Positions 9,082-56,232 of a stretch of 64,000 nucleotides of DNA are shown piece by piece. Origin of the DNA: Minutocellus sp. GHC0000111 (taxonomy: Eukaryota); the NCBI GenBank assembly GCA_977018835.1, contig OZ361258.1, positions 1,922,001-1,986,000 on the forward strand, in the 5' to 3' direction. Made by a program: the position numbers and the translations under genes. Every line of letters begins with the position of its first letter. Within the stretch, counting starts at the first letter, position 1. Under the pieces are notes generated by a model. It was not told the DNA's origin. It saw nothing but the letters and a program-made list of their open reading frames with translations, and made no database searches.

Positions 9082-9129
9082 TAGCTACACATTTTAATGA
9101 CACACACTAGCAAGCATGACTGTGCTGGA

Positions 9130-11250
9130 CATGCTGCGCGGAAAAATAATAAATTGTTAATGATCTCATGCTAAACCCTCGCATGTTGGCGAAGATGCAT
9201 CAAACACACCTTGAAGAGCGTTTTCACGCGGCGGAATGTGCAAAACCAGCTCACAGCACGTGTCAGGCGAGAGAACAGATGAAGAATGTGGGCATGGATC
9301 TCCATGCATGAGTAACTGTTTGCGGTTGGCATTGCTGGTTCTACTTTCTTCACTTCTCTCGTCTCTCATCGCCCGACTGTGTCAATCCTGTAAACGTCTA
9401 GATGTCTGTGTAGAAAATTGTCACACACGCACACCGGTTGCTGACACCGAAGGCTGGTGCTGGGCCGTGCAGGCTCTGGGGGCTGCGCTTGGCCGTGCAG
9501 GCTCTGGGGGCTGCGCAGACGACAACTGCGCACCAATGACGCAGATGCTCATTTTTGGCCCGTCGAGTCCGCAGCCAGGACAAGGCACGGAGTCAGTGGG
9601 CTGATGCACCTGCAATCCTGTGATCTAACTAACTGGACTCTCACAACCCAGAGTGAGGTGAACTCCCAGCCAGTTCTGCATGCGTGGAGAACTGAAAGAT
9701 GCAGGCAGGTGCTCTTCAGTTCACACAACAACTGAAAAGTGTGTGGGGCCACAGACCAGTCAAAAGACCACCAACAAGCAGAAGACACTTTCTTGAGAAC
9801 ACAAGAGCGCATCACTGCTACGTAGGCCTAGTGGCTATCGCTGAGAGAAAAGGAGGAAATTTTGCAAAAATAAGTAGAGTTTTGCGCTGCATTAGATGGC
9901 CCGGGCACCCCGATGAGATTAATGCGATCAGAAAATTATTTTTAAAGAAAAGCATGTCAAGGGTTGGTTGGAGGAAGGAGCTCTGACTTCAATTAGGAGC
10001 AAGCAGTGAGATTAAGCGATCAGAAAATTGTTTTTAAAGAAAAGCGTGTTAAGGGTTGTTGTTGGTTGGAGGAAGGAGCTCTGACTTTTCAGTTAGGAGG
10101 AGCGAGCAGGTGTGTAGAGACAAGGTCTCACAATTCTGCCAAGAGCTAACCTTGATTGAGCAAGCCAAGTCACAGGCCCACTTTTGATTGCCCCACTTCA
10201 CAGTGTGCTCAAGCAGTCACTGACAACCGACACACGGCGGCACCAGCGCAGCGGCAGATGGCTCTCCGCACGACTGCACTCAACAGTGTGTTAGCAATTA
10301 AAGCTATCAAAGAACACCACCATCATCAAAGGACAGGATCAAAGAAGAAAGAAAGACAGACATGAAGAACAGTTGTTCTCGAACAAAGAAGGCGTGGCAA
10401 CAGTTGCAATGCATGGGGACCCGGAACTAAGTCCGGCGAGGAAACATCTGGTAGAAGCGCAAACGCTTGTGCCCAACACCCGACCGAGGATGGGGCCACA
10501 GCAGGGGCGACCGAATGTCACTCCCCTCGACAATGTGGCTGCCATCATGGGCACCATCAGCATTCTTAGAGAATCTGAACGCCAGAAAATCAAAGGCTTG
10601 AGAAGAGCGAACCATTCCTTGGATGAACGACTCTTGGTAAAAGGACATCAGCGGGACCATCCTTGCCATCAATGTGAGCAAAGTTGATGATGCCAGAGGC
10701 CTGGGCTTCTCGGCACATGTGGTAGTTGAGAAGAAGGTGAGAGCGCTTCTGAAGCTTGCTTGCCACTGCGATCCATTAGAAACGTCTTCCCAAGAATGTC
10801 CAAAAGGTGATCTGAAACATCGAACATGTAATCCGATTGGATCAAGCAGTTCCAAGACAACTCTGACGAAGCGAGGGTCTGGGGAAGCGACCTCTCCTCG
10901 GCGGTCTCAGCTTCGGTGATGCCGCCAGCGCCGTTGGCCTCGATGGGCTCGCCCACATTCTGCTCTGCCTCCTCGTCATCACGATTCACACGAGTGGACC
11001 GGAATTGTTGTCAACGACCTCTCCCCCAACAAAGGAAGAAGGTTCAGGAAGTGGTTGGGCAGACAGTTTAGCATGATGAAGCAAGAAGGGGGGCAGAAGT
11101 GGGATGGAGGGTTTTCTGACGCTTGGCTTCAACCATGTTGGCCTGACGAGAGGCACTGATCTTTTCCATCTCGACGGGAAGGGGTTTTCCCCCCAAAATG
11201 ACCGCAAAAGCAATTTCCCCACGGGAATCTGGGAAATTCCCGGGGAAATT
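9130..11250. other. Degenerate, TpA-poor repeat-derived region
   Basis: No long ORF. Local duplications at 9462-9516 and 9914-10087. A ~60-bp segment (9884-9945) is shared in inverted orientation with 47735-47795. CA/TG-rich texture. Confidence 0.55.
9914..10087. repeat. Imperfect direct duplication (~76-80 bp unit)
   Basis: TGAGATTAA(T)GCGATCAGAAAATT(A/G)TTTTTAAAGAAAAGC...GGTTGGAGGAAGGAGCTCTGACTT occurs at 9914 and at 10007. Confidence 0.9.
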
Positions 11251-13881
11251 CAAACTAACTAAGAAGCTCTGTCAACAACATGGATGGGAAAAAGAGCACG
11301 CCTCGCCAAAATCGACTAAAATAAGCGACTGACATGTGAATATTCGTCGACCTATAAAATTGCAACTAAAAAAACACACGACCTCTTATTGCTAGATTGG
11401 CCACGCCCACCCTCCAAGTGGCGACGTAGTGGCATGCCTTAGAGGGCGCCCGGGCCCAGCATGGTCTGAAAGATGCGAGCGAAGCGAGAAATTTCAGTTC
11501 CATTTGAGATGCGACTGATGGTCTGCACGCAAATGAATCAAACGTCAAACGTCATGGCCGAAAGTTCCGTTGCTTGACTTGCGTTGCATGTACTTCTCTT
11601 GCTCATATTCTGTTTGGCAAATGCGATCACAATGGAAAGATGGTGGGGGGACATCCGTGCTACCACGCGTAGCTATACAGCGGATTACGAACTCTGAGTT
11701 TTTGCGGCGAAAAAGTTTCTTGGGAGGGCAGGCCCTCTTGTCCCAATGCTTCCGCGCGTCGGACCTCGTGTTGTTGTAAATGCCAACGGTAACAAGCGGA
11801 TGCAACCGTCAAACTCAATCTACGCTTATCATTCAACAAGATACTCTCCAAAGATCAAGTTATGTGCCACTAACACAGATTATTCCCAATCGAGTTGATG
11901 GTTCAAGGGGGAGAACGTGTTGATGGAGTGCGCCGTAGATTTCCTACCTCTTGCTACGCACCAGAAGAAATTCCTACCAATTGGTACATGTCTGCCCAAC
12001 TTTTACTGATGTAAAACTCAAGGGCACAGATTTGAATTCCAAATCAGTATGGATGATGTATGGAAAGACTGCATTCCTCGTGCTGCATCTGATTTTACAT
12101 TCATTCGCTGCCAAGGCGCTTCCATCTGCCTTCCGCATTCGAATTGTTTTTGTTGATTTGATGTGGCCGGCAAACATGCTCTATGCCCCCCGCATGGCTC
12201 TCCCAGCTGGATCATACTCTCCATCTCGGCTACTCCGATAGAATATAAAACATGCTGGAACCATCAGGCAGGACTACCAGAAAGGCGGCGCAATCTACTA
12301 GTATGCCTCAGTGTAATCATCAGCGACTTGATGTTCTTTTGGAAATCCAAACACAATGACAAATAGAATATAAAACGTAGGGATTTATGTAACTGAAACA
12401 TGTATTTGCGTTTTGCATCGCTCTCAATCAACTACTCCGTTTCTAATTTCCCATCACTGCTGTTCTTGACCTTTTGGCCTTATCGCCATCATCGGCACTT
12501 TGGCTTTAGAGTTCACAGCACTTCTTATCCTGTGACCGTTCCTACCCATCATATTTATTTGAATAAACAGCCAATCATCATTGCATGCCATCTAAAGAGC
12601 ACCGAGCTGTTCCAAATTATCGAGTACCTAGTCCGTCTCTTGTTGCTCGGCAACTTCTTTAACACGAATCCTACCATCGTCCCGAATAGAAATGATGAGG
12701 TGAAGAAAATCGACAGGACTTGATGGCTCAGAGGTTCAAGGAGACCAAAAAGGAGAGAATCTTTGAATTCTTCCACACACATTCTTGCGTCCACTTGCCA
12801 AAATACTGGACATCCTCCCCGATCCTCCTTATGTATTCAGCCGTGTTTTTGCTGCCGATGTCATCAGTGTTGGCCGAGGTTGTTGAAGTCAAACAACACA
12901 ATTCCCCGGCTCACGAACATGTATCATAAAGCTCCACAGCTTGGTATCTCGCATAGAAACGCCCTTGAAATGCACATAACTCATGGTCACAAATAGCTGT
13001 CGCGAAAAGCATCGGGCCGTGTGAGCCGGGACGGTCAGCATGCCATGTAGTCCCTCACAATGCTTGGCCAATTGACGGACTCGACACACTGGTAGCCTTG
13101 AACAATCTGCAATCCATGTGCTACTTTGCCCACCTCCATTTGCTATCATCTGCAAATTCCATCATGGAATGGATTCGGGTATTTTTTACGCAATGCATTT
13201 CTGCCATCCATGTGCATCTGAATGACATGACCGTGCTGGCGCTGAAAGATTTGGTAATTGGGTTACACATTATGTGACACCCTCATGCATATTTACCACA
13301 ATGTGGTAAGGAAGGAAAATAAATCATTGCAATATAACTTGTATATCTAAATAAAGTTATTGCTCAATATACACATCTAAACTAAATGCCCAGGCGTTTG
13401 CCAATCCTTCCAGTCTGGACGAAAGATGGAGGCACCTTGCTCGGCCTGCGATTTTCAGCAGTGCTGGAGCGAAGGATAAGGGGAAGACTTGCGGTGGGGA
13501 TCGGTAGTGACGATGGGCTTGGGCGAAGAAATAGCCGGCAAGGAAGCGCTCGTAGACTCTAAAAATGCACCCCTACTTTTGAAGAATGTACTTGTACTTG
13601 GCATTTGACTGGCTTTATCTCTCTCTCTCTCTCTGTGATTCAAAAAGGAAATAGCGCGAAAAAAGAAGGAAAACGCCATTGAAAAAGGTTAGCGATGACG
13701 ATATGGTTGATATGATGTGTGCCGATGCGGATGATATGTGCGATATGGAACTATAAAACCAATAAGTCATTCGAAAATATGTGAAACACAAATCAGTTTG
13801 GAATTATGCCGCACTTACCAAAACACAAACATGTGTAAACCGACGATGGACTCATCGGTGCGTGGCCACCGACTGGCACGC

Positions 13882-25580: not shown

Positions 25581-27008
25581 ATGAAACGGATCTACTCTGC
25601 ATTTGCGACAGCTTGCATTGCCGTAGCAGTAATGATCGACGAGTGCCATGGCTTCGCACATCCAACAGGCGGCTCCCCATCAGTCGATGTGAAAGTAGCC
25701 GCCAAGAAGCAGCCAAACGAAATATCTCCCGAACATCCGCTCCGAGTTCTCATCGCCGGTGGGGGCGTCGGTGGTCTCGTATTGGCCAACTCTCTTGCCA
25801 AGATCGATACCATGAATGTCACAGTCCTCGAGCGTACGGAATCCTTTAAGAGATTTGGCGGGCCGATACAATTGGCTTCGAACGCCCTCCAAGTTCTCAA
25901 GGTGATGGATGGCGATGCCTTCGAACGAATCATGGACAAGTTTACTTTGACGGGCGACAAGATCAACGGCATTAAAGATGGTATTCGTACAGAGTGGTAT
26001 GCCAAGTTTGATTTGAGAGAGCCAGCCGAAAAGAGAGGTTTGCCCTACACTGGTGTGATTGATCGGCCGGACTTGCAAGAGATTTATCTGGAGTCGCTGC
26101 CGGATGGGATGATGTGCAATGGTGACGCTGTTATTGGTTATGAAAAGAATGTGAATGGGCATGGCGTAAAAGTTCGAATGAAGTCTGGAAATGTGGTGGA
26201 AGGCGATGTGCTTATTGGTGCGGATGACATTTGGTCGGCGGTCCGAGCTTGCATGAGAAATGAGCCAGCAAAGGGTGAGGGATCTGGTGTGGCGTATTCT
26301 GGCTACACTGTATTTGCCGGCGAACTTTCGTACGACAGCTTTGATAACGGACGCGTGGGTTACAAGGTATATATCGGTCCAAATCGCTACTTTGTTGTTA
26401 CTGACATTGGAAAGGGTTGTTATCAATGGTACGCCTTTCTGGCCAGGCCTGTCAATTCTGCTGACAACACTCCCATGCCGGACGGAACGTCGAAATATCT
26501 TCAGGATCAATTCGTTGGGTGGTCTCAAGAGATCCATCACATACTGAAGGCTACCCAAGACGATGAGATTGAGCAGAGAGATTTATACGATCGGCCGCCG
26601 TCGGTATTCCAACCTTGGACGGACGGTAATGTCGCTCTGATAGGAGATGCAATCCACGCCATGGCACCCAATCTCGGCCAGGGTGGATGCCAAGCGATCG
26701 AAGATGCATACGTGCTATGGCAAGAGCTCGGCACAATTAAACAAAGAGATGAGATCGAGACAAGTTTATCGAGATACCATAGACGCCGACTTGTTCGATC
26801 GGCAACAGTGCAAGGTCTCAGTCGCTTCGCATCAGACATTATAATTCAAGGATTCGATACACCTGCAAAGATTATAAGAATTGAAGATGGTGGTATTGAA
26901 TTCCAGAATTTCAACTATGCCGGTATCATGACGAAACTTCTCCAGCCCATGCTTCCCATTTTCTTTTGGGTGCAGTTTACGTATCTCTATTCTGGGTGGG
27001 AAAATTAA
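25581..27008 (+). CDS. ZEP: Zeaxanthin epoxidase-like FAD monooxygenase, plastid-type presequence
   Basis: LRVLIAGGGVGGL, FGGPIQLASNAL, INGIKDG, TGVIDRPDLQ, GADDIWS (canonical GADGIWS), IGDAIHAMAPNLGQGGCQAIED. The signal peptide ends ...CHG-F. Confidence 0.9.
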   Translation: MKRIYSAFATACIAVAVMIDECHGFAHPTGGSPSVDVKVAAKKQPNEISPEHPLRVLIAGGGVGGLVLANSLAKIDTMNVTVLERTESFKRFGGPIQLASNALQVLKVMDGDAFERIMDKFTLTGDKINGIKDGIRTEWYAKFDLREPAEKRGLPYTGVIDRPDLQEIYLESLPDGMMCNGDAVIGYEKNVNGHGVKVRMKSGNVVEGDVLIGADDIWSAVRACMRNEPAKGEGSGVAYSGYTVFAGELSYDSFDNGRVGYKVYIGPNRYFVVTDIGKGCYQWYAFLARPVNSADNTPMPDGTSKYLQDQFVGWSQEIHHILKATQDDEIEQRDLYDRPPSVFQPWTDGNVALIGDAIHAMAPNLGQGGCQAIEDAYVLWQELGTIKQRDEIETSLSRYHRRRLVRSATVQGLSRFASDIIIQGFDTPAKIIRIEDGGIEFQNFNYAGIMTKLLQPMLPIFFWVQFTYLYSGWEN

Positions 27009-27180
27009 ATGTAATGTAGCCATTCTATTATTACTTATTTCTGGGGTACAATTGCAACGTTGGGAGTTGTGCTGGCTGGCGTCGGTTCTTGTCGGGGAAC
27101 CATGAATGCGAACATACGAACCCATGTTCCCTATTCCAGAGGAAATATGTAATAAAATAGAATGCCGGTGATGCCGACCA

Positions 27181-28303
27181 TTACCACTCCAACTTGTCAG
27201 CCATCGACCGGGGCACAATCCTCGACGTGGTGCCCTCTGCTCCCGCCCGGGTGATGGGAACACCCTCTTCCTTGTATTGATAAATGAGTTCATTCCGGTA
27301 GTCCTCCCAAAGCTCCTCAAGGTCGTCAAATTTCTGGTAGGGTCTGATGACAACGCATTGGGACCGAAGTTCCCACCCCCAGTTGTTGAGGCGGTGGACA
27401 TGGAACGTCCAAGCAGGTGATCGCTTGTTCCCGTCATTTGTTGTGTTGACAATGCTTCCATTGTCTTCAATCTGATAGGGAGGCGATCGATCTCCGCCAC
27501 TGACGGTGCCATCTTTTAGAAAAAAGAGATTATTAGAGGCGGCCCTCCAAAGTCCGGATCGAAGGGCGGTGGGCTCATCACTGGGAGGTGCCATGAACCA
27601 TCTGTAGGCGCTCCACTGCCATTCGCGGAGGTCGCTGAGAGTAGTACGATTGACGGTCGCCATCTTGAGCTCATTCCAGTATCTGCGGTACCAGAAGCCG
27701 GCCCTTGGAGTATCGGAGCTTGTTGGTTGTTGGTGGGTACGGACGAATCTCAGACGACGATGAGACGGAAAGGTCGAATTCGGAATCATTTCCGCCGTCC
27801 TTTCGTTCGGCATCCGTTTTGGCCCGCTCCATCCGGAATTGGTATCCGAACTTGGTCTTCCACTTTTGGTCGCACATCTCCTTCCAGATGATATTATCGA
27901 GGGCGGCCGCACGGAATGATTTCGACGACTTGGATATCTCGAGAAGTTCGGAAGGAACCTCGCCGTCGGCCAGGAAGTCCAGGGTGGCGACGATAAGGTC
28001 GTGGGAATGGAGCGGGTTCTGTGCAGGATTTTCTTGCTCCTCACCGCCGACATCGACTTCAGCGACATTCTTACCAGAGGCAATGGGCTGAAGCTTATCA
28101 GGTAGACGGCTCGACAGCAAATTGGGAGGGGAAGGGGAGGGGGAGACGTGCCGGACCTCTTCGGTACGTGGGACCTTGCCAGGTGCGCCGGAGCCGCAGA
28201 ATTCTTCAACCTCTGTCCCTTCTTCTTTTCCGAGATGCGCGGCTTTGCGCTTACCTCCGATGAGGCCAGGCTCGGCCCTACATGTATTAGATGCGGTGGC
28301 CAT
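27181..28303 (-). CDS. F-box-like protein split by a 1-nt frameshift near 27703
   Basis: F-box-like segment HDLIVATLDFL...SKSFRAAALDNIIWKEMCDQKW. It continues in another frame as GFWYRRYWNELK...RLNNWGWELRS. Start position uncertain. Confidence 0.65.
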
Positions 28304-28380
28304 GCTACTACGGTGGACACTTAGCTGCCGATGCCGCCGCCACGCACGTTGCGGTATTCTTTTATCACGCAAGTGACATT

Positions 28381-28508
28381 AGAACATTCTTCATGCTACT
28401 ACGAGTAGACTAGCTAGAGTACGCGCTGGCAGACGATTACCAATAGAACATTCTTCATGCTACTACGAGTAGACTAGCTAGAGTACGCGCTGGCAGACGA
28501 TTACCAAT
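28381..28508. repeat. Perfect tandem duplication, 2 x 64 bp, in the divergent intergenic region
   Basis: AGAACATTCTTCATGCTACTACGAGTAGACTAGCTAGAGTACGCGCTGGCAGACGATTACCAAT occurs at 28381 and at 28445. Confidence 0.95.
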
Positions 28509-30989: not shown

Positions 30990-32066
30990 TTATTGCTTGG
31001 AGAATATTTGCCTCAATATCTCAGGCGCACCGACATGGGACGGCACAGCACCCCGTACATTGGCAACGTACGCACCAAGCGCACATGCTCTCTCTAACGC
31101 CTGGTCAGCCGGTTCTTCCTCCAGCAACAGATATCGGATCAACGCCGCCAAGAACGAATCTCCAGCCCCGACGGTATCGCTCCCTGGTTGCGATTCACAA
31201 GAGTAACCGCCATTCTCCACAAATACATCGCCCTGTCGACAATACAATGTCGCCCCACTATCCCCTCGCGTGACGCATACTCGCTTTGCGTTGACCGCCG
31301 ACCCCAATGCCTTCATCCTTTGCTGGATGGCATCACCAAACAACCCGTCATTGGACGGCTGGAGGCCGCACCAGGATTCCACAATGGGTAATTCTTCTTC
31401 GTTCAATTTCAACATTGCCAGCTCCGCCGCATCATTCGCATCTCCGCGACAAAGAGCCAGGACATCGCCAGCCTCGTACCACGGTGGACGCAAGTCGATA
31501 TCCATCACGACAGAATCCTCCTTGGCGGTATTGCGGATGGCAGATATCGTAGCCGCAGAGGTGGCACCGTCGGACGAGCCCAGCCGACACGCAATGGTTC
31601 CCATCACAACCACCGAAGCTGACGATACGGCATCTTTCAACCCATTGGACAGCTGCAGTCCATCCCATGCTGCGGGTGTATCGAACTCATACGAAGCATC
31701 TCCCTTTTCGTCAAGGGTGGCAACGACCATACCAGTTCCCAGATCATCGTCCATCTGCATCAAGGACGTATCAACGTTTCGAGTTTCCAATCGCCGACGT
31801 GCTTCTTTGCCGAGCTGATCATTTCCAACGCAAGATGCCACGGCAGCACCAACACCCAGGGACGACAAATGAACTGCCACATTGGTCACGGCACCGCCGA
31901 GGAAGAGGGCCTCGGGGAGGCTGTCGTACAACGTCTCTCCGACGCAAACTACAGAGGGCGCTGCCCTTGCCGAAAACGCCAAAGCGACATGTGTTGTGCT
32001 TGCAACAAAATAAAAGGTGGATATCAGCGCATATCGGACAGCATAAGAAGTGAAACGAGGAAGCAT
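30990..32066 (-). CDS. PfkB-family carbohydrate kinase (fructokinase-like), with signal peptide
   Basis: VCVGETLYD, GGAVTNVA, VGNDQLG, KLNEEEL, VTRGDSGA, and the DTVGAGDSF PfkB signature. The presequence ends ALA-F. Confidence 0.9.
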   Translation of the reverse strand: MLPRFTSYAVRYALISTFYFVASTTHVALAFSARAAPSVVCVGETLYDSLPEALFLGGAVTNVAVHLSSLGVGAAVASCVGNDQLGKEARRRLETRNVDTSLMQMDDDLGTGMVVATLDEKGDASYEFDTPAAWDGLQLSNGLKDAVSSASVVVMGTIACRLGSSDGATSAATISAIRNTAKEDSVVMDIDLRPPWYEAGDVLALCRGDANDAAELAMLKLNEEELPIVESWCGLQPSNDGLFGDAIQQRMKALGSAVNAKRVCVTRGDSGATLYCRQGDVFVENGGYSCESQPGSDTVGAGDSFLAALIRYLLLEEEPADQALERACALGAYVANVRGAVPSHVGAPEILRQIFSKQ

Positions 32067-32153
32067 CTTGCTTGTGGGTATGGTTCGGCTTTGTTTTGTT
32101 TTGTTCCCTGCTTGTTCCTTCGCTTGGTTCAACCCTTCACCCTTCAACCTTAA

Positions 32154-32247
32154 GAGGGCGCTGTCCATAATTTTCCCCGTTTTTAATCCCCCTTATTCTT
32201 ATTTCTTATGACGAGCGAAGCATGAAAAAATCGCCCCTCTGCCCCCT
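32154..32247 (+). mobile_element. Isolated copy of the Kolobok left end
   Basis: TTAA followed by GAGGGCGCTGTCCATAATTTTCCCCG..., identical to 34089-34160 for about 72 bp. After a gap it matches 34184-34202. Confidence 0.9.
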
Positions 32248-35426: not shown

Positions 35427-35530
35427 TCATTACCTCAACACATGTAGATAACAAGAATGTGCGTAGCACGTGAGTAACAGCACACAATAAATCCATTTTT
35501 ATTTACAGTGATAAAATATTTTACACGTGT

Positions 35531-38015
35531 TTACAAGCTGCCATTTTCTCTCAGTATCGCCGGCATCCAAGAGCTAACATCATTTGCCGATACACCGAAG
35601 TTTGTCTTAGCTTTCTTATTATTTCTTGCAGATTTCTTGTTGCTGCCTGGGCTTCTGCGCTTCTTTCCGGCGTAAACGACAACGTCGTCAGCATCGTCGC
35701 ATTGACATTCAGCCCGAGTGTGGCCAAGCTGCTTGCATTTCTGACACTGCTGGTCAATCTTCTTCTTGCGGCCAGGCTTTGCTGGTTTCGCCTTACCAGC
35801 AGCTAGGGACCTGTACTTCTTGTACACATAGTCCTTGTCGTCTTTCTCGCTTCTGTTTCGCAAGGCTGCTCGAAGGCGCTTGCTGTCGCTCTTGCTCTTT
35901 TTGTACTCATCGGTGCGCTTACGCGCAAGGTCGCCCTCGAGCTTCCGGTCAATTGCATCGAATCCATCTTTTCGGGTAGGAGAATCCCTCGATCCCAACT
36001 TTCCAAGAACTCGCTCATTGAATTCCGTACCCAGTGACTTGTGGCCAGCGGCTCTACTTGTTGCATTTGGGTAGGCGTCTGAAGCAGTCAAATTCGGCCT
36101 TTTCCCCATCGTGAACTTCGTCACCATCCCGTTGAGCTGTTCGACGCCGGTGGTAGATTCCTTCTTGCAGTTGGAGTCGGCAGCATTCTTGTTGATTCTC
36201 TTGGTTATTTCAAGCGTCATCTTGCAAATCGTGTCGTCACTAATCTCCAATATGTCGCCATCGAATTGATTCCCCGAGCTCCATTCCTCATCGAGCTTGC
36301 CATCACTCCAATCAGGATGAGCAATGCTGAGGCGAATCCAATCACACGTGTTGGTGGTGCAAAAAGTGTGAATGCCACATTGGTGACGAACGACGGACTG
36401 GAGTTCTTTCTGAAGGAGGGCCAGATGACTTTGTTTTTCCTCCTCGGACACAGCACCATCGGGCTGATCGAGAACGCTGTGCTTGTACCGATCAGTAATC
36501 TTCGAAATGTCCTGTTTCATCCGATTGATGCGTGGTCGGGGGATGGCATTAAAATTTTCAACTCCCAACATTCTCGGCAAAGCTCAACACCAGAAGCCAA
36601 CTCATCACCTACTATGTCTTCCTGAGCGGCTGCTGCCCTAGTAATGCCTTTGCTATCGCCATCAGCAACGTGCTTCTCAACGAAAAGAGGACACGCCTGC
36701 ACGCTTCCTTCATCGTCGACCAGAAGATTCCGTCCAACATTCTCGGCCAGATGCTCCTCTGCCACACCGGGGGAGTAGGAAGAGTTGCGATAGCAGAAGC
36801 CATCATGGTCGTACAGGGCCAGTATCTCATCCTTGCTCATGTTTTTGAGCTCACTCGGCGTTATTGGATTGCCGGCTTCCCGCCTCTCCCTCAATCTTGC
36901 ATTGCAGGCTCTCACGCAACAGTGGCAGCTTGCCTGAGAGATTCTCTTGTCAACAACAAGGCCAGTTTCCTTGTCTACGGCAAACACCGCTGCAGCAGAG
37001 CCAGTGTAGCAATGGCCGTAGTCGCGTTTGAGGGCGCTGCCGTCTTGGGCCACCGTAACCACCGCCGCCGTGTGCATCTCGCCGCCTTGTTCAAACTCAA
37101 CAGTCTTGCTGCTAGCGGCATGTGCTTTTGCCCTATTCTCGTCAATGATTTCATCAGCTGCTTCAATAGCCGCTGCTCTGCATTTCTTTTCCACCTGTCG
37201 GGCATTCTTTTCGGTCGGATGGACGATGTCGGCCTTCGTGCAGAAATTCATGAAGCGACTTGCGCACATGGCCTCATCTTCCGCTGCCTCCATCAGCTCC
37301 AAGTTCATTCCAGCCTGACTTCTAGAATGCTTTCTGCCGGGGCACACACAACTTCTGACCTCTGGCCGATCCAAGTGCAAAAAGAAAAAGGTTGGTTGCA
37401 TCTATCGCATCGCCATTCAAATGTGACGCCGAATCCACGCCGAACTGGCTCGGCCGAGAGATGCAGATTGCCGCACGATCGGTGGAGATTCTGTACGAAA
37501 TCATGCAGCTGCTTCATCTCAACCACAATTCTTTTGCCGTTGAGCTGCACGCCGGTGATGTTGGGACGATCGGTAGCGTTGGCGGTGGGAGTAGATGACC
37601 GACCGCCCGAAGAATTCTTGTCGGAACAACACTTCAGTGTCGCGTTGAGATGGGGCCCATGCTTTTCATCGTCCTGGAAGCAATTTTCAGGCATGGTCGG
37701 CAGTGATCGCTTGCCATTGCGTTGAGAGCGTGGGCTGGCGTTATCGGCCATTCTGGAGAAGCGGTAGAAGGGCTTTGCAACGTCAAGGCCTGATATTTTC
37801 TCTGGACGTCGTCGTTGGACATTGACCTCGTGTCGTGTTGGGACGCGTTGAAGAGATGATCGAACAAGAGAGATCTCTAAGCTCGGCGATGCGCCACCGC
37901 GCATCAAGATGCGGACAAGCTCATCAATAGTGTAGTAAGTACATCTGACTTCGTCTGGGAATGAGAGCAAGAGTGAGAGGATTGCCTCCTTGGCGTTAGC
38001 ACGTGATGTTTCCAT
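35531..38015 (-). pseudogene. Kolobok DDE transposase, broken into three frames
   Basis: VAQDGSALKR..GH..G (D1), SCHCC...H..C..N...S...E, VADGDSK (D2), HQCGIH..C, TTGVEQLN (E), and a C-terminal CQKCKQLGHTRAEC knuckle. Frameshifts near 37345 and 36580. Confidence 0.85.
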
Positions 38016-38725
38016 GGTTGTTTTTTTGGTTTGTGTCGGTTCTGGCGCAAGATGCGCTTTTCGATGAGAGCCTTACAAAAAGAACCCCAAATGAGGGAGA
38101 CGTGCAAAAATACCCCAAACAAATATCCCCTTACCTCCCAACAGCAAAACTTCAAGATATCTTCCCACCAGCACCACCAATGCTGGTCATGCGTCGGCCG
38201 AGACTAATTTCGGTCGATCCGACGATGATGTGTGCGTCGACCATTGTGTTTCTGAGGGAGAGTTGATTCATCGAAGTTCCTCTGAACCAAGTGTTCCTGG
38301 AGGGATTTCCGACTTAATGCTGAAAGGAACGTCGATGACTCTTCGCCACTGTGGAGAGCGGCGGCCTTCGATGAGGAGCCCATTGTCACGTTGGAGTGCT
38401 AACTTTGGCGATGGTGCGAAGAAAAAACGGCACAAAACACGCATTTTGGGGGCTTCCTAAAAGTTATGGACAGCGCCCTCTTAATTCCTTCATTTCGTCT
38501 CTTCCGGGCGACGAGCAGACCATTCTTAGTGCAGTCAAGCGAGCCTTTGGAACAAAAAGCCCTTCGCCGCTCGGCCAACGCAACGGCAGCAGCAGCTCTG
38601 ACTTTGCGCCTCGAGAGATGATGTCAAAATCGAGAACACATCCATCATCCCATACATCATGCAGGCAGTAACAATTTGATTCAACCAACACCAAACTATA
38701 TCTATTCGCAATTCCTTTCTCACGC

Positions 38726-42834: not shown

Positions 42835-44380
42835 TCAAAGAGAGTTCTCTCTTGATTTTGAGCAATCCGCGTGAGCTTTCAATAAATCCTCCACCCAATC
42901 CGCACCGATCAATCTGCAAATCTCCTCCACCCCATGGTCACAGTCGCCCTCCAAAAACATGTCTCTCCCGCTGCAGGTATCATCGCCTTCTTCGTGTCCA
43001 TTCATCGTTCTCATCAGCTCGTCTCGCACAAAATCCCCCACCAATTCTCGATTCAGCAACAGCCGCGGCACATTTCGTCCAACCCAAGACGGCATGGCAG
43101 CGACGGGGTTGACCAGCAAACTGGTACCCTGTACAATGAGTAGATCGCTTTTTTCCATGTCATCCTCGACCAACTCCTGGAATCGTCGCGGCAATTCTTC
43201 ACCAAAGAACACAATGTCCGGTTTGGACAAGCTGCCGCATTGCGGACATTGATGTGGCACACCGGCAAGATACGAATCTCGACACTCAGCAACATCATCG
43301 GACGTAAATTGGCACGATATGCACGAGAAGGAACGGAAATGCCCGTGGCATTCCACGAGCTTATCGTCAGACATTCCCGCCAAGCTCTCCAGTCCATCGA
43401 TGTCTGCACAATGCACCCCGTTGAGGCGAATGGAGAAAAAGACGTGAGCCTGCAATCAAACCTAAACACAACAAAGAACAAACAAATCTGAATCAGTCAA
43501 TGCAATTTTGCCGCTCTTGCCCACACAAATTGCACTCACTCTGCGTATACACCCTTCGTAGCATGCCCTTGTCCTCCAACACCTTCAAAAACGCATGCGT
43601 CCTCGATGGCCTGGGACCCTCTTCCTGACCCGGCCAAATCTCCTTGGCCAGCGTCGCAGATGCCTGCGGTTCTCTCTTAAAATAGTCCAACTCAAATATT
43701 GCCTCGGGATACGGTAGATTGTATTCCTCCAATTTGGAATACAATCCGGTGCCGGGCGTACGAAAGTCGGGTATGCCGCACGAGGTCGACACGCCGGCAC
43801 CGTTGACTACGACAATGTTTTGGTAGACATTGTGGGTGAGGTTGGTGATGACTTGGTCGAGGAGACGGCGGTGCTTTGGTTGGATCCGAATGGAGGGCTT
43901 CGCTGGTGCTGCATCGTTTCTTGAGTCGTCGTTATCGGCATCATCGTCACTTGATGAGGCAGACGAGGTAGATCTCGAGGCTAGCAGCAGGCATCGTGGG
44001 CCAGATCGACATGCGTGTGGCACATTCACATAAGACGGTGGGAGTGACTTGTGACGACAACGAAAACTCCGAGGAGTTGCCGTAGATGCAGATGCAGAAA
44101 GGAGGGCCGAAACCGAAGTTGACGACCTGGGCCGAACCTGACCGACGCCAGCCGTACTTGTTGTGCGTGCATGCAGCAAACGGTCGGAGAAACCCATCAG
44201 CACGCGCGTGCCGGCGCCTCCGCTGCTGGTGGTACCGCTGGAAGTGCTAGCGGCCGCGAGTCCTACGAGGGCGGACAAATACCTCCTGGAAGGCTGCGAC
44301 GGCATGGTTCTTGCGCAGCTCTTGGTGCTTCGCCGGTGGCCGCGCGGCACTTTCGTGGTTCCCCCGGCAAGGGATGGCAT
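42835..44380 (-). CDS. Class I sirtuin (SIRT2/3-like NAD-dependent deacylase), 2 exons
   Basis: GAGVSTSCGIPDFRTPGTGLY; YTQN|IDGLE across intron 43539-43404; ECHG, CxxC..CxxC, KPDIVFFGE, GTSLLV, NRE. Long R/S-rich transit-like N-terminus. Confidence 0.92.
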
Positions 44381-44630
44381 CACTTGCAGCTACTTGCCCC
44401 CCCGGCCTCGCCCGGCTGCCGCTCGTCCGAAAACAGAACAAAAGCGTTGATGAGGGGTTGTGCTAAATTAAAATAATGGCTGCTAGGGAGTGAAAGTTTT
44501 GAAGCAGCAGGACGGAACCCTGCCAGCACGAATGTCGTCGAGGAACCTCTGGCACGCACCACCTTTCTTGCTCACCTTGACTGTCCCACCACCAGGTGTG
44601 TCTCCGCTTCGGCCCCTGCCACCTCGAGCG

Positions 44631-45121
44631 CTACAACGAGGAAGTCCTGGAGAAGCTGAAGGCACTTGTGGAAGAGCTGGGGATGTGAAGAGGGACGAGA
44701 GCTCTCTCCTCGACCTTTGGATTGGATGCCCTCTCCTCAGCCTTGAACTGCGCCGTCTGTTGGGCCTCATGTCCCTTGACGCCCTGAGTCCGACGATCTT
44801 CCTTAACGCCCTCTTGGTGGGCTCGCTCTACAAACGATTCGTCGAGCCAATAGATGCCGCCCCATCCATTCTTCACTAGCCAAATGTGTTTTGGTCCAAG
44901 ATGTGATCTTCGAGCAAGTGCCACTTGGGCGTCATGCTAATGCCGATTGCCCGTGCTTGCTTGAGGGCACTTGCAATCAATGCTTCAAGCTCTCTCACAG
45001 CCTTCTTTGCCTCATCATCCCATTTCATGTACCATTTCAGAAACCTGGAACACATTGCGTCAAGAGTGTGGAGCAAATTAGAGCAAGCTTTGCAGAGCTC
45101 TTTGATGTCGTCATCCGTCAT
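44631..45121 (-). mobile_element. C-terminal fragment of a Transib/RAG1/Chapaev-like DDE transposase
   Basis: ISMTPKWHLLEDH is followed, after a frameshift, by GGIYWLDESFVERAHQ. The sequence is TpA-poor and has no intact ORF. Confidence 0.55.
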
Positions 45122-45313
45122 GCCATCTTCCTCGCGATTGTGCTCTAGGAGAGTTCCTTTGGTGGAGGTGTCATGGTGGATGAACGAACTCTATTGTCCT
45201 TGGTTTCTTCTTGTTGTTGCCATCAGAAATATTAATAGATAAAGCTCTCCAGCATTCTGCCGCCAGCACTGCCCTTGTTTTACCTGAGTCGGCCGCCTCA
45301 ATGCCGGCCTTTT

Positions 45314-46086
45314 TCAGGAAGTGGAAGTGAGGGGCATCGTCATCCTCTCGGCATCATCGACGACAGCTCCCATCTCTGGCTCACCATCACCGTGCTTCTG
45401 ACGACTCTTCTCAAAGCACTGCTGCATGCATGCTTCATGTGCAGCGTCCTCTCTTGCAACATCAGCTTCGTCCTCACAACAGGGCACACAGTCCTCGTCT
45501 TCGTCGTCTTCGTCGTCATCGTCCTCACTGATCTCGCCGGCCTCCGTCGTGGTCAGGGTGCCCACCGTCCCAACGTCGTCGTCATTGTCCCACCCCCATC
45601 GTCCTGGCCATTGCACCCACCAGGGAGCTTCTGGGCCTCGAGCAACATCTGCCTGTTGATTTCGCAGTCCATCGCCGCATGACATCCCACCGACACATGT
45701 GGTGCGACCGACTTGAGGAATGCATTACATGCCTTCGTCAAATTGAGCCGCGGCGGCGGTGTTTCGAGGCGAAATTGTTGCTCGACCGTGACCATGTCGA
45801 AAGCCATCCATCCATCATCATGGAGAGCGTCGGCTGCACGAGGATTGACAGAGCCGAGGCGAACAAATGTGCTCATTTTGTGTGGGGTTCGCTGAACGTC
45901 GTCGGCAAGGCAGTGTCTTGATACCATTTCATCCCATCCATTCTGGTTGTCTGTCCTCACAAAAAACACATCGTCGTGCCGCCGCACGCAGTCTTCTTCG
46001 TGTTTCTTCTTCTTCAAACCCAAGATGCCCGCAGTGCACATGACGGCGCCGTACATGATGGGACTGCATCCCAACACATTCATCAA
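45314..46086 (-). pseudogene. Hypermutated ORF relic, unknown family
   Basis: Two overlapping frames with 1 Tyr in total and excess Cys/His (DEDCVPCCED, HEACMQQCFEK). No TpA in 45283-45725. Confidence 0.55.
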
Positions 46087-46772
46087 GGAGTCGTTGTTGT
46101 TGCCGATGAAATTGTAGTAATGAAGTTCCTTTCTGCGAAGACGGACGAGTAGTTCAGCCAGGGCGTCCTGCGCACCGCAACTCTGTGTCTGCGGTGTTGA
46201 CCGCGGGATTGCGGCTGTTATTTTTTTTGCTCATGGAGAATCATGGATCGAGACCAACGGGAATATCACCAGGATGTCGGGAGCACCTGGTTGGTGGTCT
46301 CGTGCCGTAATTCTCCCACACCAGCGCGAGATGTCGCCTTCGTTCTGCACGTAGCGGCGGCAATTTGAATTTTTGCCGCCATGGTGGCTCGCGTTGGGCG
46401 CGCCGGTCGGTTGCTTCGCGCGCCGGCCGGCCACCGAAAGTGCGACCAAAAGTATGCGAGTCATCCGGCTGGCAGATGGTGCTGTGGGAGTGGCAGTATT
46501 CTTCAACCTCTGCCCCTTCTTCTTCTTTTTTTTCTTCTTCTTCTTCAAAAAGCGCAGTTTTACGCTTGCTGCCGATGAGAGCAGCGGCACATGTAGCCGG
46601 TGAGGTAGCCAGGGCGGCGGCGGCGGATGCAGTGGCAGCGGCGGAAGCAAAGGCACAGGGGGCCTCTTCCTCTGACTTGTTGCTTGGTGCCACAGAAGGA
46701 TGTGCCGACGAAGGCACAGCGGGAGAATCTGAAGCGATCTTCTTGCGGGGACCGTGCTCACACAGATGTAAT

Positions 46773-47294
46773 TTACGAGATCAGACAAGGGGGGAGACTA
46801 GCAGCACGGTCGACGAGGGCAGAGAGTGTTCGGCAAGATTGTGTTTGCAACAATCGATCGGCATTGGCTTGGTACTCCTTTTTGTGGACGGTGGCGAGGT
46901 GATGAGTGCCATTGGAAGATTGGTTGTTGTGGAGGGAAAATACGCAGTTCTCGAGGCGCTTCGTGGGGTCCTTGAAGCAGGTGGCACAAATGTAGAGGAA
47001 GGCTCCTTTCTGAGTCATCGCGGCTTTCAGCTTCTTGTGGAGGACGGTGCCATCTTTGTCCACATCAAAGTCGTCGTGGAAGTCATGCTTGCACAGTGTT
47101 GGTTTTTCGTCTCGCGCAAGGCTGGTCGAGAGCCCCGTCACCCTCGTGTTCTTGAGATTTAGGGTGATGTGCTGCTGAATGCAGTGCTTGCATCGGTCAG
47201 GCAGGTCCTGGCGGAGCGTGCCAAATTCCTTGCGATGCCAAAGCAGCATTGTCTTGCCTTTGGCAGGATTGGAAGCCATGCTGCCCTGCTGCAA
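46773..47294 (-). mobile_element. BED zinc-finger fragment, probable hAT transposase N-terminus relic
   Basis: YICATC...SSNGTHHLATVH fits the aromatic-x-CxxC...HLxxxH pattern. Confidence 0.6.
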
Positions 47295-48753
47295 ATGGAG
47301 CCAGAGAGCTGGTGATGCGACAGGCCGACACTGGTTCTTGCCATGTGGAGAAGGCAGGGGTTTGGAACAGGTGCGCGCGAGCCCCCTGATGTGTGAGCCC
47401 GCACCACACCAAGACCCTGCTCATCTCGTCGATGAAGTTGGTAAGGATGTCACGCTCGTTCGCTCTTCATGAGGCGTCGCGCCAGATCGGCCAGCTCCTC
47501 CTGGCTCTTGGTGTTCTCCAGAGTGTTCCTGCTCTTGGTGCGCCATCCTGAGTCACCAGCAATGGTGATCCCAAGATTGGCACCTCCCAGAGCCGAGGCC
47601 AAAGTTGCCGCTGCTTCCTGCACCGACGCCGAGGACTCGTTGTCAGAGAGCCATTGCGGACCGTGGGCAGATTGCTGTGTTTTCCCAAAGAGGCCAGACC
47701 GCCTCGTCAGGAGAGTGTGAGACACGCATGAACTAAAAATAGTTCTGATCGCATTATTAATCTCATCGGGCGCCCGGGCCATCTGCTGCAGCGCAACTCT
47801 TCACACGGCCTTTTTGCGTGTGCTTTCTGCGCGCAGATGGGAGCCCACTCCCTCTGAGCGTGCGTTAGCCACTAAAACATCATCGCATCAGCACTAAACA
47901 CGCATTCAACGCGTGCTTAGGCTTTTTACATGCTTGCTTGCTCATTGCAAGTCTCATCTCATTTGTGCCCCCGCAGCTTGTCTCTCGGTCATGCCTTGCT
48001 GGCGGCCATCTCCTGCTCCGTCTTTTCACTCTCAAGCGCTCGAGCCGAGCGGCCAGTGCACCCCCCTCCTTGACGAGAGCATCCAGCTCCTCGGCAGCCT
48101 GCACCTGCTGGGCAAGTGCTTTGGCTCGATCCTCCGATTTCTTGGCCACATCTCCCTCATCATCCTTGGAGCCGGCCGCGGCGGCGTCCTCCGTCGTCTT
48201 GGCCTTCTTGGCGGGGGGTCCTTCCCTGGCACCGGCCTCGCGCTGGGCCCGGACCCTGGCCACCTCCTCCTTCTCTCCTCGTTCGTTCTCCATAATTGCT
48301 CCGCCTCTCTGCATTGATGAGTGACAGTGCGGCGACACTGTTTTTCGCATTCGCTTCGCTCGTGTGAAAGCTGCTGCTGCTGGCCGCTGGAGGGCCCTCT
48401 TGAAATCGAAAAGCAGAGCAAGCTGATGGAAGATTTGCCTGCGTATTGCAAGTCGCATCTCATTTTTTGCAGCCGCAGCAGCTCACAGCACCATGAGATT
48501 TCTCGCCTTTGCCGCCGCGCCGCCGCGACGCGACGCGACGGCTACGGGCGGTGTATCGAGCGATGGTCGTGCGTGCGTCGTCCGTCACCGCTCCGCCGCC
48601 CTAAGTCAGTATCGAGGGCATCGAGGGCTTACCTGGCAGGTCTCCTCTCCCTGTTTGTTGGGTTGGAAATACAGAGAGTCTCTCTCTTGCGCCGACTTTG
48701 TTTTGAATTGAATTGCATTGATTTGCACACGGCTCTTTTTCTTGCAACCAAGC

Positions 48754-49203
48754 ATGCCGCCAACCGCAACCGGCTCCGACGACGAGCGCATGGCCGACGC
48801 CGTGGCCGCCGACGAGGCGGCCGAGGCCGCTGCTGCGGAAGCCGCTGGTGACGAAGCAGTTGCTTCGGCTGCTCTAGCTTCCACACCTGCGAGTGCGAGC
48901 AATGCGAGCGGTGCCAGCTCGGCAGGCGGGGGAGATTCCACCGAGGAGGAGGAAGACGACGACGACGACGACAATAGTAACGATGATAGCCACGAGTCGT
49001 CGGGTGATGATGATGACGACGACGACAACGACGACGACGATGATGATGATGATGACGACGATGACAATGAAAGCAGCGGGAGCAACGAGGACGAGCCGAT
49101 GGAGGTCGAGGCAGTCCCTACCGAAGATCAGGACGACGAGGACGATGATGCCGAAGATGACACAACCAGCGCGACCCAAGGCAGTATGCATTGGTTGCGG
49201 TAG
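48754..49203 (+). other. Asp/Ala-rich ORF fragment with GAY trinucleotide tracts
   Basis: MPPTATG...poly-D. It runs head-on into the truncated minus-strand presequence at about 49190. Confidence 0.4.
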
Positions 49204-49552
49204 TGGTTGAACCATCACTCTTTTCGCTGCTGTCACCTTTGCTTCCATCTATCTCTGCATTGTCATCCGAGCTCGCCGAAGATGTTACCAGCCGACTTCC
49301 GCCGACGTACGACGTTCGGCATCGGGTGGAAAATGACGATGCTGGCAGCAGATTTGACTCTCGGGTGTGTTGAGTATTGCGATCATTTGCACAAAGCCGA
49401 TTCGATGGGCTGTGCATACGCTGAATTTGAACATATCCTCCAGTTGATGGTTGCGCCGGCTGAGGATGGAACGCTGACGCATGTGGAACAGAAGAGTCCA
49501 AGATACCCAGCACGACCAGGAGTGCACCAACGAAAAGCATCGACTTTGACAT
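49185..49552 (-). pseudogene. Orphan bipartite plastid-targeting presequence (5' gene fragment)
   Basis: MSKSMLFVGALLVVLGILDSSVPHASA-FHP, then an S/R-rich transit peptide. No mature domain follows. Confidence 0.6.
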
Positions 49553-50245
49553 GCTGTTCTTTCTTGCGTGAGTCATATTTTTATTGGTATAAACAAGGAT
49601 GGAGTGCAATTTAATAGTGACCACTCTAGTAAGCTTTCTCAGTTGTCGGCCTTTGAGTGATTGATTTGATTGCGTTCGTTTGTTCAAACAGAAGCACAAT
49701 GTGTGCTCGAAATTGATTGGAGTGAGATATGGACGCTGATTGCTCTGCTTTCGGTTCAAGGCACTGAACACCAGATATAACAAGATAACGATTTTGTATC
49801 TGGGCAAATTAGGTACTCGATGGTCTCCTTCGCGTACTAGTCTAGCTAGTATTGCAGGCGTTCAGAGTAGTCAACGACGGCGGACCAACATCTTTGCGCT
49901 GACGCGCCCTTCAAGCTGCTTCAACCAGTCGCTCACCTATCCTAAAATGCTGCACGTAGAGGCCGCTGTACTTCAAGTCGCCCAGAGGATGGAACTTCAA
50001 GTCAGAGCTAATCGTGATGTCGAACAAAAGGGTCTAAACTCTAATCAATTTCAAAACGCATCTAAGTCGTACTATGTGCCGGTATATATATCATACATAT
50101 ATACATGTAGCCATGTAGCTAGAATTGGGCATTCTGATCTTTCTCAGCCGTAGATCTCATGCATGTTTAAGATCTAGATCTACCAGTACATTACATATGT
50201 GTAATGTAGACTAGGATTCCTAGAGTCCATCTCCATCTCCCCTCA

Positions 50246-53239: not shown

Positions 53240-54960
53240 CTATTTATTAGAAGGATGACGAGCTGAGGGCTCCATCCCCTTGGCCGTTTCGTTGAAGTCG
53301 ATCCTAATTCCAGTGTGCAAGTTTTCGTCACCCAACCTTCCAACAAACTCATTGCTACCACCGGCCTTAATCACCAGGCCCATTATCCTCCAGTACTGAA
53401 TGAAGGCCGAAGCAATTTTGCAGTTAGGCATGCTATCGTAAACGTCCTCGGCAGTGTCCCAGATCTGGTCGGTGGAAATGACGGAGGTGCCTACCATTTT
53501 TCGTGCCCATTCCGAGTGCCGCCGGCTCATCGCGGGGAACACGCTCAAGTCAAGGACGTTGGCGTGAGGCATCTGCGGTGCCTGTGGCTGCCACGTCCAG
53601 CCTTGCTCAGCACAGAAGTTAGTAACAAATTGCGTGAAGGTTCCGTCCTCGTGAGGCCCGGCCTGGTCGCCCTGGATAATAACATGGCAATCTTCGTGTT
53701 GCTTGCCCGGACCGACAAGGTTGAGAATCGCTGGGAAAATAGTCTCCTTGAATGCGAGGAGCAAAGAGCATTTCGGATCCTTTTTGGTGCCTTCGTTCGA
53801 TCCAGTAACGCAACAATCAACAAGAAACGACTCTCCTTTCCGGCGAAGAGGTTCCTTTGGTGTCCCATCGGGGTTGGTGTTTGGGTACCGCATTGAACCA
53901 TCAGGCTGTGATGCTGCTTCGTGCTGAGCTCGCTCCGCTATTTTAGGAGCTTGAGCTCGTACCAGTGGCAGTTTTACAACCTCGCACCCACTCTCAAGAG
54001 AACCGTCAAAGACAGCGGCAACAAATGCAATGGCCATGACCTTGTTGATGTGGCTCCTGTGAAAGGCCGCGTAATCTCGCTTTTTCACGCCGATTTCCTC
54101 GCAAGCCTTCGCAAAAGCTCGGAGGACGAGACCCCAGAACCATTTCTCATCGTGATGCACGAGGAGAACTCGCTTCTTTCCATTCGGTAAATTGCCGTCC
54201 GTTTGCGCCTGTCCTTGGCAATTGAATCGGCATTGAGGCCGAGTGGGATCGGGGTGATGGCCTTGAGAGGCACATTCTCATGCATCATGCCACCAAAAGG
54301 CTTCTCATGCTGGACATCGCAAAGAGCACCTCCACCGACACCTCGACTGACCATAACAAATCCCTTGCCCTCAGGCCGATTCATGTTGGGACTGAAGTCG
54401 GCAGACACAAGGACATGTTCCCCAGCACTGATGGCAGGTCGCATGTCATCTTCCATTCTCATTGCTTTCTTGCGTTCGGGTGGTGCATCCGTCGGCATCC
54501 TGTGCGACCGAAGATGTTCACGCATTTGCACCCTCTGCTCCAAATGACGCATCGCCTCCTTCATTTTGTTCCTTTTCTTCTCGGCATCGGCCATGGCCTT
54601 TTCATCCTTCCGCTTTTCTCGTTTCAAGGTGTCCCTTAGCCCTTTCAAAGCCTCCTCTGCAGCTTTGCATTGCGCTTCGGCCTCAACCAGCAGCTTGTCC
54701 AAATTCTCCTCGGTCGATCCACCAGAATTGGCGGTGCCGGTAGCAGAAACACCGACACTGGCAGGATTGCCAGATTCTTCACTGTTGCCACTTCCATCCA
54801 CCACCATGGACTCGGCGATGCCCCCAGCTCCGACATCATCATCACTAGGACGAGCAGCGACACCAGCATTGTTCGTCCTCGACCGTCGGCTCAGGGCTGG
54901 CATCGGCGTCATTGGATGACGAATTGCGCCGAGCAATTTGAATTTGAGAAATCGGCACAT
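53240..54960 (-). pseudogene. Mariner-like DD38D transposase, frameshifted between N-terminal region and catalytic core
   Basis: HHDEKWF (D1), IIQGDQAGPH (D2) and QAPQMPHANVLDLSVFPAM (D3, 38 residues after D2) resemble plant-mariner DD39D motifs. The N-terminal coiled coil and small beta-barrel-like segment lie in another frame. Confidence 0.85.
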
Positions 54961-56232
54961 CTTGTGCCGGATCAGGACCGGTCTGGCTCGGACAGCACAG
55001 CTCCTCCTCTCGGGCTTGCTCCATGACGTCCTGCTGTTTCTGAAGTGAGAGGCCCGCCCATGCCCGGTTCGCTGTGGTCTGGCTGGATCATCCCAGGAGA
55101 CTTGCCACGAATCGTAGAGGCATCGATGGTGCCGCTCCGATGGACAAAATAATCAAAGCATGGGATGGAGCTGCCGGACCGACGGGAGCGGCGACATGCT
55201 GGCGCATCAGCTGCGGTGGCAGCAGCAGCAACAGCCATTTGCATTAACATGGTGTTGTTGGGGATGCAGTGTTTTGTGGCAGCAGAGCAACAGTTTGTGT
55301 GTCGGGTGGGTTGGAAATGAGGAAGGTTTCATTGAGTGGCGGGCGCGCCGGGCGGGTGATGATTTTTTTGGCCCGCTCGATTTTGGCGCGGGGTCACCCG
55401 GACCGCACACAAGACACGCCATTCATTGTGGGGACCATGGAGACCGATGTCGGAGCTCAAACCACATGGCTGCTACTTGACTCATCAATCAATGCATGTT
55501 TGGGAGGTGGTGGTGGGGTCGGGAGGTGGAGGAGGTGACCGGTTGTCATCGGAAAAACTGGCAGAAGTCGGGAGGGGCGATGTGGATGTGGGGTGAATCG
55601 GCCAGACGCTGGCATGGGAAGATGAAATCGACATCTCCGAGTCGGTCCAAGGAAGGTCAAGGACCAAACCGTTCTGGAGACACCACGCTTGTCCCTTGCG
55701 TGAAGCGGGGATGCCGTCGGCACTGCCGTCACCGCCATCTTGAAGACAGGACGACAGCAAATAAATGCTGCTTGCTGCGTGCGTTTGTGCTGATTTTTTT
55801 ATGAGATTTTGCCCAAAGACCCGAAAACCGGGTCCCTGAAACTGCTGTCCGCGACCTCGTAGGTACGAGCACGTGGTTGTTCCTCCGAGCTCTGAAAAGG
55901 GCCTCATAACGTCATTTAGAAAAGATTTTCATCAACCGCGGGTTCCATCGGACAACTGAAAGACGTATATAAAAGGAGTGAATTGGAATTCAAGGTAATT
56001 CATTTTCATCGAGAGCAGAAGTCGAGACGACCATGCATGCTCGCTCGCTTTTTCCAGCTATTTTGCGAACGAACCAGAGGAGGGCACAATTGTTTCAGCA
56101 CCATGAAATTTCCCAGCCAATGCCGAGAAGATGCGCGTGTTTGCGTAAGCGCCACGTATGCGCCAGCATGTTACTTTGCAGGAGATCGATTGGTCAGAAT
56201 ACCGCGAATATTGATTGGTAACGATAAGTAAC

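Follow-up and report, generated by a model that had tools for sequence, protein, structure and literature searches.

Mobile DNA of the diatom Minutocellus sp. GHC0000111 almost certainly undergoes a mutation process that turns TpA into TpG or CpA. We found its signature in a window of 64,000 nucleotides (contig OZ361258.1, positions 1,922,001 to 1,986,000; all coordinates below are those of the window), where it marks a group of eroded repeats at 44490-48400 and further transposon relics. In ascomycetes, repeat-induced point mutation (RIP) changes CpA to TpA in duplicated DNA; the process described here runs in the opposite direction. This was the core of an earlier sequence-only reading of the window, and both outgroup sequences and codons found in three states now agree with it. 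The process is confined to mobile DNA and host genes are ordinary, as seen in one 7.25-kb control and 12-15 host open reading frames (ORFs). The explanation that we favor, with a probability of about 0.5, is that a host enzyme deaminates adenine in the chromatin of silenced mobile elements, mainly at T-A-pyrimidine. The features needed to follow the argument are these (o/e, observed/expected ratio):

44490..44733, unstranded: single-copy flank of block A, with 1 TA in 244 bp; one single-depth contig spans it
44697..46524, minus strand: block A, a high-copy repeat with a TA o/e of 0.28; ends approximate
44697..45121, minus strand: frameshifted remnant of a second ORF of block A (TPKW.L.EDH ... 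DES.VE..H), with 42-53% identity to two unnamed proteins
45283..45725, unstranded: TA-free interval of 443 bp inside block A
45556..46230, minus strand: relic ORF1 of block A, with Y/C/H and I/M/T three-state columns among copies
46560..47750, minus strand: block C1, a low-copy relic (depth 108-368 in run X3, mostly 258-2085 in run X1) that holds 47162-47700
46776-47420, minus strand: ORF of block C1 with a CxxC...H...H pattern
47750..48400, unstranded: block C2, a moderately repeated relic; 47930-48400 has 1 TA
53243..55760, minus strand: block B, a Tc1/mariner-type transposase relic (ORFs 53243-54277 and 54088-55152), whose family was used to polarise and count mutations

Loss of TpA and direction of change

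The region 44490-48300 (3811 bp) contains only 48 TA dinucleotides, a TA o/e of 0.27, while CA, TG and CG stand at 1.41, 1.23 and 0.84. The counts given in the sequence-only reading proved exact, with no TA in 45283-45725 and one in the 539 bp of 47162-47700 (CG o/e 0.91 and 0.59, respectively). The first of these intervals coincides with the longest TA-free gap of the whole window, 445 bp, a length not reached in any of 200 simulated sequences of 64 kb built on the dinucleotide frequencies of host genes (median 256, maximum 413). Across the window, TA o/e is 0.26-0.41 in five relic blocks versus 0.42-0.67 in fifteen host ORF stretches of similar GC content, so that single-copy DNA of matched composition is not equally poor in TpA. 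In host ORFs the density of TA is 0.030 per base, or some 1.8 per 60 bp, which bears out the 1-2 per 60 bp estimated before. The depletion is the product of a mutation process and not of native composition. The second-longest TA-free gap, 385 bp at 5093-5478, lies in an Ala/Thr/Pro-rich low-complexity part of ORF 5092-6594; it is probably compositional, and thus TA gaps alone are no proof of the process.

Variation among DNA copies points to the same process. The copies compared were assembled contigs of public runs, X1, X3 and X5 among them, and the counts refer to the best-supported variants of each region, 40 from the finding and 40 from the host control; two of the former were dropped because they lay in unique flank, and neither was of the TA type. 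Exchanges between TA and TG or CA account for 27 of the 38 remaining variants in 44.7-48.4 kb versus 4/40 in the host control at 20900-28150 (Fisher p 3e-8). Among transitions alone the figures are 27/36 and 4/20 (p 2e-4), with about 0.2 expected by chance. The 27 TA-type variants listed comprise 11 of the TG type and 16 of the CA type. In run X3, transitions outnumber transversions 50:3 in the finding versus 33:32 in the host control. The excess of TA to TG/CA changes in copy spectra, on which the sequence-only reading had staked its case, is thus present. The part of the host control at 27167-28150 is itself duplicated or divergent, with raised depth and another haplotype of 343 bp that shows about 32 differences; no TA excess was found there among the variants listed.

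The direction of change was read from protein copies, 61 plus the window copy for family B and 77 for family A. In family B, 68 of 339 Tyr codons are changed, 41 to His and 27 to Cys, with no other residue, and the controls hardly vary (Arg 3/845 and Phe 3/702 changed). Codons for Cys and for His can each arise from TAY in a single step, whereas two steps separate them from one another, and TA must therefore be ancestral. Outgroups lead to the same conclusion. The family B outgroup (82% identical) has Tyr at 6 of the 7 covered Tyr columns and Leu at one; in family A, Tyr is the outgroup residue in 5/5 cases for three columns that vary among copies, and Ile for a column with M or T; at most of the three-state columns of ORF1, outgroups carry Tyr, Phe or Ile. 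Together, outgroups and three-state codons lead us to reject both forward RIP and native Cys/His, the latter being one of the outcomes that the sequence-only reading had named as refuting it. No TA>CG doubles are seen at Tyr codons, presumably because the first hit destroys the TpA. Among distant Tc1 relatives (<70% identity), 12 Cys or His among 332 residues at conserved Tyr columns give no sign of the process.

The six restorations of Tyr proposed from sequence fared unevenly, three being supported and two unsupported. The first and third Cys of DEDCVPCCED fall in columns that are Y/C/H three-state in other copies, and for the Cys of EEDCVRRHDD there is a TA-bearing variant at 45989, with outgroups showing Y in 3/5 and C in 2/5 at the motif. 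The His of EEDCVRRHDD sits in a stretch that has no counterpart in most copies. The two unsupported residues are taken up below.

Target motif, specificity and reach

The target had been given as TpA. Indeed TA is what changes, but not every TpA does so: the motif is T-A-pyrimidine, and RTAY (R, purine; Y, pyrimidine) is the best target. Among the 27 TA-type DNA variants listed, oriented on the A, 26 have a 3' pyrimidine. Of the sites that are still TA in the window and could be matched in copies, 19/26 TAY sites are changed versus 3/22 TAR sites. Resolved into four classes, RTAY is changed at 10/10 sites (51/320 copy-codons), YTAY at 9/16 (18/585), RTAR at 3/11 (15/377) and YTAR at 0/11 (0/284). 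Both strands are affected (12/28 and 10/20 sites), and at asymmetric sites 13 of the DNA variants listed changed as YTAY and 1 as RTAR. On the whole, composition fits these counts: the o/e of RTAY is 0.19 in relics but 0.89 in host ORFs and 0.84 in the rest of the DNA, and that of YTAR is 0.42, 0.25 and 0.41, respectively. Host coding DNA strongly avoids YTAR and keeps RTAY, the mirror image of the eroded relics, and an RTAY index per kb parts relics from genes better than TA o/e does. In the pooled transposable-element (TE) blocks, no other TAY context is as depleted as TATG (TE/host survival 0.12 vs 0.40-0.50 in the others); decay of CG to TG feeding TGTG could contribute to this.

Specificity was assessed with conservative site counts, restricted to columns where the window has the majority residue, over 138 copies and with no sites reverted. 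TA>G was seen at 20/46 sites, TA>C at 0/44 and TA>T at 1/38. For the other contexts, AA>G was seen at 11/171 sites, GA>G at 4/281 and CA>G at 15/214, the last being inflated because CA/TG pairs derive from TA. CG>T reached 16/183 sites and other C>T 25/539. As the sequence-only reading had it, this is not ordinary decay of 5-methylcytosine, given the contrast between CG>T and TA>G and the stability of Arg codons. CpG decay is minor and a general GC bias is absent.

The 35 family B copies that span all 15 TA-class sites make up 23 haplotypes, and 20 of 21 informative site pairs are incompatible by the four-gamete test. Single copies carry between 0 and 6 TA-class changes; this load is overdispersed (p 0.001) and does not correlate with other differences (rho 0.06). 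The simplest reading is that resident copies received recurrent independent hits.

The process had been described as restricted to repeats. Mobile and repeated DNA is depleted, but so are the low-copy block at 46560-47750 and the single-copy flank at 44490-44733. Block C1, present in one to a few copies, is nevertheless the most depleted block. Within 47223-47264, another X3 contig over it departs from the window at 4 positions, and at 3 of them it has TA restored, each time as TAY. Pairing between repeats, as in RIP, is thus not implied; our data suggest that targeting follows a chromatin domain instead. The depleted flank may reflect spread from the element or an older relic, and the depleted low-copy DNA may once have had partners.

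As for the elements themselves, the summed contig depth of block A is mostly 1e4-1e6 versus 226-361 in the flank, a difference of two to three orders of magnitude, although a depth sum is not a copy number, and the block has 49 protein relatives, most of them on megabase ENA contigs. It is likely a non-autonomous or decayed transposon. No family name emerged from Pfam, from PDB sequence searches or from Foldseek with a predicted model of low confidence (pLDDT 51), and Pfam matches to gag_p24 on three relatives (P0274, P0259 and P0245) were judged spurious. Its second-ORF remnant at 44697..45121 is likely the C-terminal part of a transposase, which may resemble RAG1/Transib-like enzymes. No terminal inverted repeats emerged in 43500-49500, Rfam gave no match in 43000-50000, and a metagenome scan for block A returned one distant locus, L001 (34% identity), without a clear signature (TA o/e 0.44; 8 RTAY, 6 YTAR). 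A 38-bp, 89%-identical copy of the right end of block A (46487-46524) lies at 28190-28227, adjoining a 64-bp tandem duplication at 28377-28508. At 44694, contigs of runs X3 and X5 diverge from the window sequence and the X1 contig continues to 44733; an insertion or junction polymorphism at the left end of block A is possible. In block C1, the CxxC...H...H pattern of the ORF resembles a BED finger by eye, and a search for its relatives among proteins of 118-377 aa returned only the self match. The AT-rich stretch 47700-47930 of block C2 retains TA, mostly as TAR. A single 1922-nt contig from an RNA library spans 46458-48379 without differences, which we do not take as evidence of transcription. 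The family of block B includes a member (P0051) with PF01498 (HTH_Tnp_Tc3_2) above the cut-off.

Other features of the window are these:

9100..11400, unstranded: further relic block (RTAY o/e 0.03, YTAR 0.76), with 63 bp in common with 47734-47796
25530-27005: FAD-dependent (ZEP-like) host ORF, whose best Atlas clusters are mostly Bacillariophyta
35534..38072, minus strand: Mutator-like transposase relic (PF20700), mildly TA-depleted (o/e 0.41 over 35500-38600)

The Mutator-like relic is less eroded, with an RTAY o/e of 0.37 versus 0.03-0.10 in blocks B, C and 9-11 kb; perhaps it is younger or partly shielded. Taken alone, neither block A (0.29, 0.27, 0.25) nor the Mutator block (0.37, 0.44, 0.35) separates the three motif classes. 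The PfkB-family ORF at 30993-32192 has only bacterial clusters as nearest Atlas neighbors, which, according to the tool's own warning, is no sign of transfer.

Proposed mechanism and rival explanations

Since the signature is found in DNA transposons, the process acts on DNA. Under the explanation that we favor, adenine would be converted to hypoxanthine, which would pair with C at replication and fix the change from A:T to G:C. The enzyme would be directed by the chromatin domain of silenced mobile DNA, and transposases would be worn down by changes such as Tyr>Cys/His and Ile>Met/Thr, which would amount to genome defence. Both this role and adenine as the target are what we infer. The pure transitions at TA fit deamination. 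Our leading guess for the enzyme is a candidate deaminase of the TadA/ADAT fold. According to the accessible parts of the reports, engineered TadA editors prefer TACG, or YAY over YAR (PMC8052359, PMC12528748).

Several observations weigh against this explanation or weaken its basis. From what is accessible of the report, amphioxus ADAT2, the one natural enzyme of its kind for which editing of adenine in DNA has been demonstrated, has a preference for GAA and not TA (PMC10354150). At our sites a purine is favored at -2, and no preference for G at +2 was found (TACG changed at 2/3 sites; TE/host survival 0.40 for TACG vs 0.45 for TACH, on few sites). Two residues proposed to derive from Tyr are invariant, the middle Cys of DEDCVPCCED in all 39 copies listed and the Cys of KACNAF in 43/43, and one Cys is fixed in family B and its near outgroup where distant homologues have Tyr. 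Some family B copies (4/35) persist without any TA-class change, and gene conversion between copies could be an added source of four-gamete incompatibility. As to the material, the variants were the best-supported 40 of 66 in the finding and 40 of 82 in the host control, this control is a single stretch of 7.25 kb, partly repeated in its last kilobase, the protein copies come from ENA contigs assumed to be of this species, and TA poverty itself helped to delimit blocks C and 9-11 kb.

The thymine of the same dinucleotide may be considered instead of the adenine. Oxidised thymine mispairs, and a process targeted to TEs in which thymine at R-T-A is modified (for example by TET/JBP-type oxidation), mispairs with G and becomes C would leave an identical record, because TpA is self-complementary: T[A>G]Y equals R[T>C]A, and pure transitions fit this route as well. 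We regard this route as unlikely. Error-prone repair synthesis recruited to silenced elements is similarly improbable. Polymerase eta also produces transversions at A, and transversions at TA are nearly absent (1/82 opportunities). The enzyme mutates WA motifs (W, A or T), as stated in the accessible part of one report (PMC7884765), and in line with this AA>G exceeds GA>G in our counts (11/171 vs 4/281), mostly with a 3' pyrimidine. However, TA sites are changed about 7x as often as AA sites (43% vs 6%), and the abundance of C>T lesions needed to trigger repair is not seen. We also consider quite unlikely that a symmetrical adenine mark at TpA, such as N6-methyladenine (6mA), decays or is misread to G, in the manner of methylated CpG becoming TpG. 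In its favor, a mark that can be maintained would be palindromic, as the best target, RTAY, is, and the domain-like spread fits an epigenetic mark; against this, the strand matters at asymmetric sites, as the 13 YTAY-way variants versus 1 RTAR-way variant attest.

We see very little room for explanations that dispense with TA loss altogether, namely a RIP-like change of CA to TA in other copies, CpG decay, native codon use or GC-biased gene conversion. It is true that the DNA variants are unpolarised, 18 of the 27 listed having TA only in other copies, that CG is slightly low (0.59-0.94) with CG>T slightly raised, and that two of the Cys discussed above are fixed. Yet a codon that occurs as Y, C and H needs a TAY hub, Tyr or Ile prevails within the families and is present in outgroups, and Arg codons are stable. 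Moreover, neither GA>G nor transversions from A/T to G/C are raised, and YTAR is untouched. Least credible of all is ADAR-like editing of element transcripts, fixed by reverse transcription. ADAR favors a 5' U, according to the available text of one preprint (bioRxiv 10.64898/2026.01.13.699255), and the class of block A is unassigned, but relics of Tc1/mariner and Mutator elements, which pass through no RNA stage, carry the signature, and single copies show it on both strands.

Relation to known systems and significance

The closest parallel to deamination of adenine in mobile DNA comes from the rhizarian alga Bigelowiella natans. According to the available text of Mettrop et al. (bioRxiv 10.64898/2026.01.13.699255), two viral inserts had received 231 of the 302 de novo mutations, and all but one of the insert mutations were A:T>G:C, all of those at TpA. 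The hypermutation occurred in a subset of lines, at a de novo rate about 1000-fold over background, and one insert was single-copy. The same text proposes ADAT2, considers transposons as possible targets and reports TE domains among TpA-poor genes. Both systems share A:T>G:C changes at TpA, with TpG and CpA products, in foreign or mobile DNA only; in both, single-copy sequence can be affected, and the effect is uneven, between lines there and between copies here. In this sense, the overdispersion per copy is only suggestive of an uneven activity like that of the B. natans lines. The two cases differ in that the mutations there arose de novo in integrated DNA of nucleocytoplasmic large DNA viruses and a virophage, whereas here we deal with standing variation in DNA transposons and repeats of a diatom, no viral insert being among the targets identified in the window. 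The available preprint text names TpA only, without the words 'diatom' or 'trinucleotide', and an RTAY rule could be in its Fig. 2B or supplements.

The sequence-only reading knew of no characterised mechanism of this kind in diatoms. We found no diatom report of TpA hypermutation either, in a literature search that covered listings and the beginnings of abstracts, most subscription papers being outside its coverage, but B. natans provides a precedent. So far, the same pattern is in print for one other alga only, and here it is extended to diatom transposons. To this the present case adds a genome in which erosion is only partial and copies are numerous, together with a polarised spectrum and a flank rule in four classes.

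Other known systems match less closely. RIP also accumulates dinucleotide-specific transitions in mobile DNA on both strands; unlike the process described here, it makes TpA and needs duplication, while we see depletion in low-copy DNA and unique flank. TadA, ADAT2 and the editors derived from TadA likewise change A to G after a 5' T, in some engineered editors with a 3' pyrimidine, as far as the accessible parts of the reports go (PMC8052359, PMC12528748). The match is partial, since TadA acts in a UACG context and here no preference for G at +2 was seen, on few sites, and a purine is favored at -2. Somatic hypermutation by polymerase eta also affects A after T or A. Unlike its WA signature, our spectrum has TA>G at 43% of sites versus AA>G at 6%, with transversions nearly absent.

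Altogether, we tentatively propose, at somewhat less than even odds, that diatoms, and perhaps much of the group of stramenopiles, alveolates and rhizarians (SAR), possess a natural editor of adenine in nuclear DNA that is directed to silenced mobile elements. It would recognize an RTAY motif unlike those of TadA or ADAT2, would be an adenine-based counterpart of RIP and APOBEC, and would have been caught here mid-course in young many-copy transposon families. A mutation-based defence measured in one rhizarian alga would then extend to diatom transposons, and the sharper motif constrains the enzyme. Because erosion is partial and unmutated copies survive, the process can be dated, mapped and watched in this genome. 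If a natural enzyme does edit adenine in nuclear DNA, it would be relevant to genome evolution and to base editing. The signature also distorts the dating and annotation of diatom transposons.

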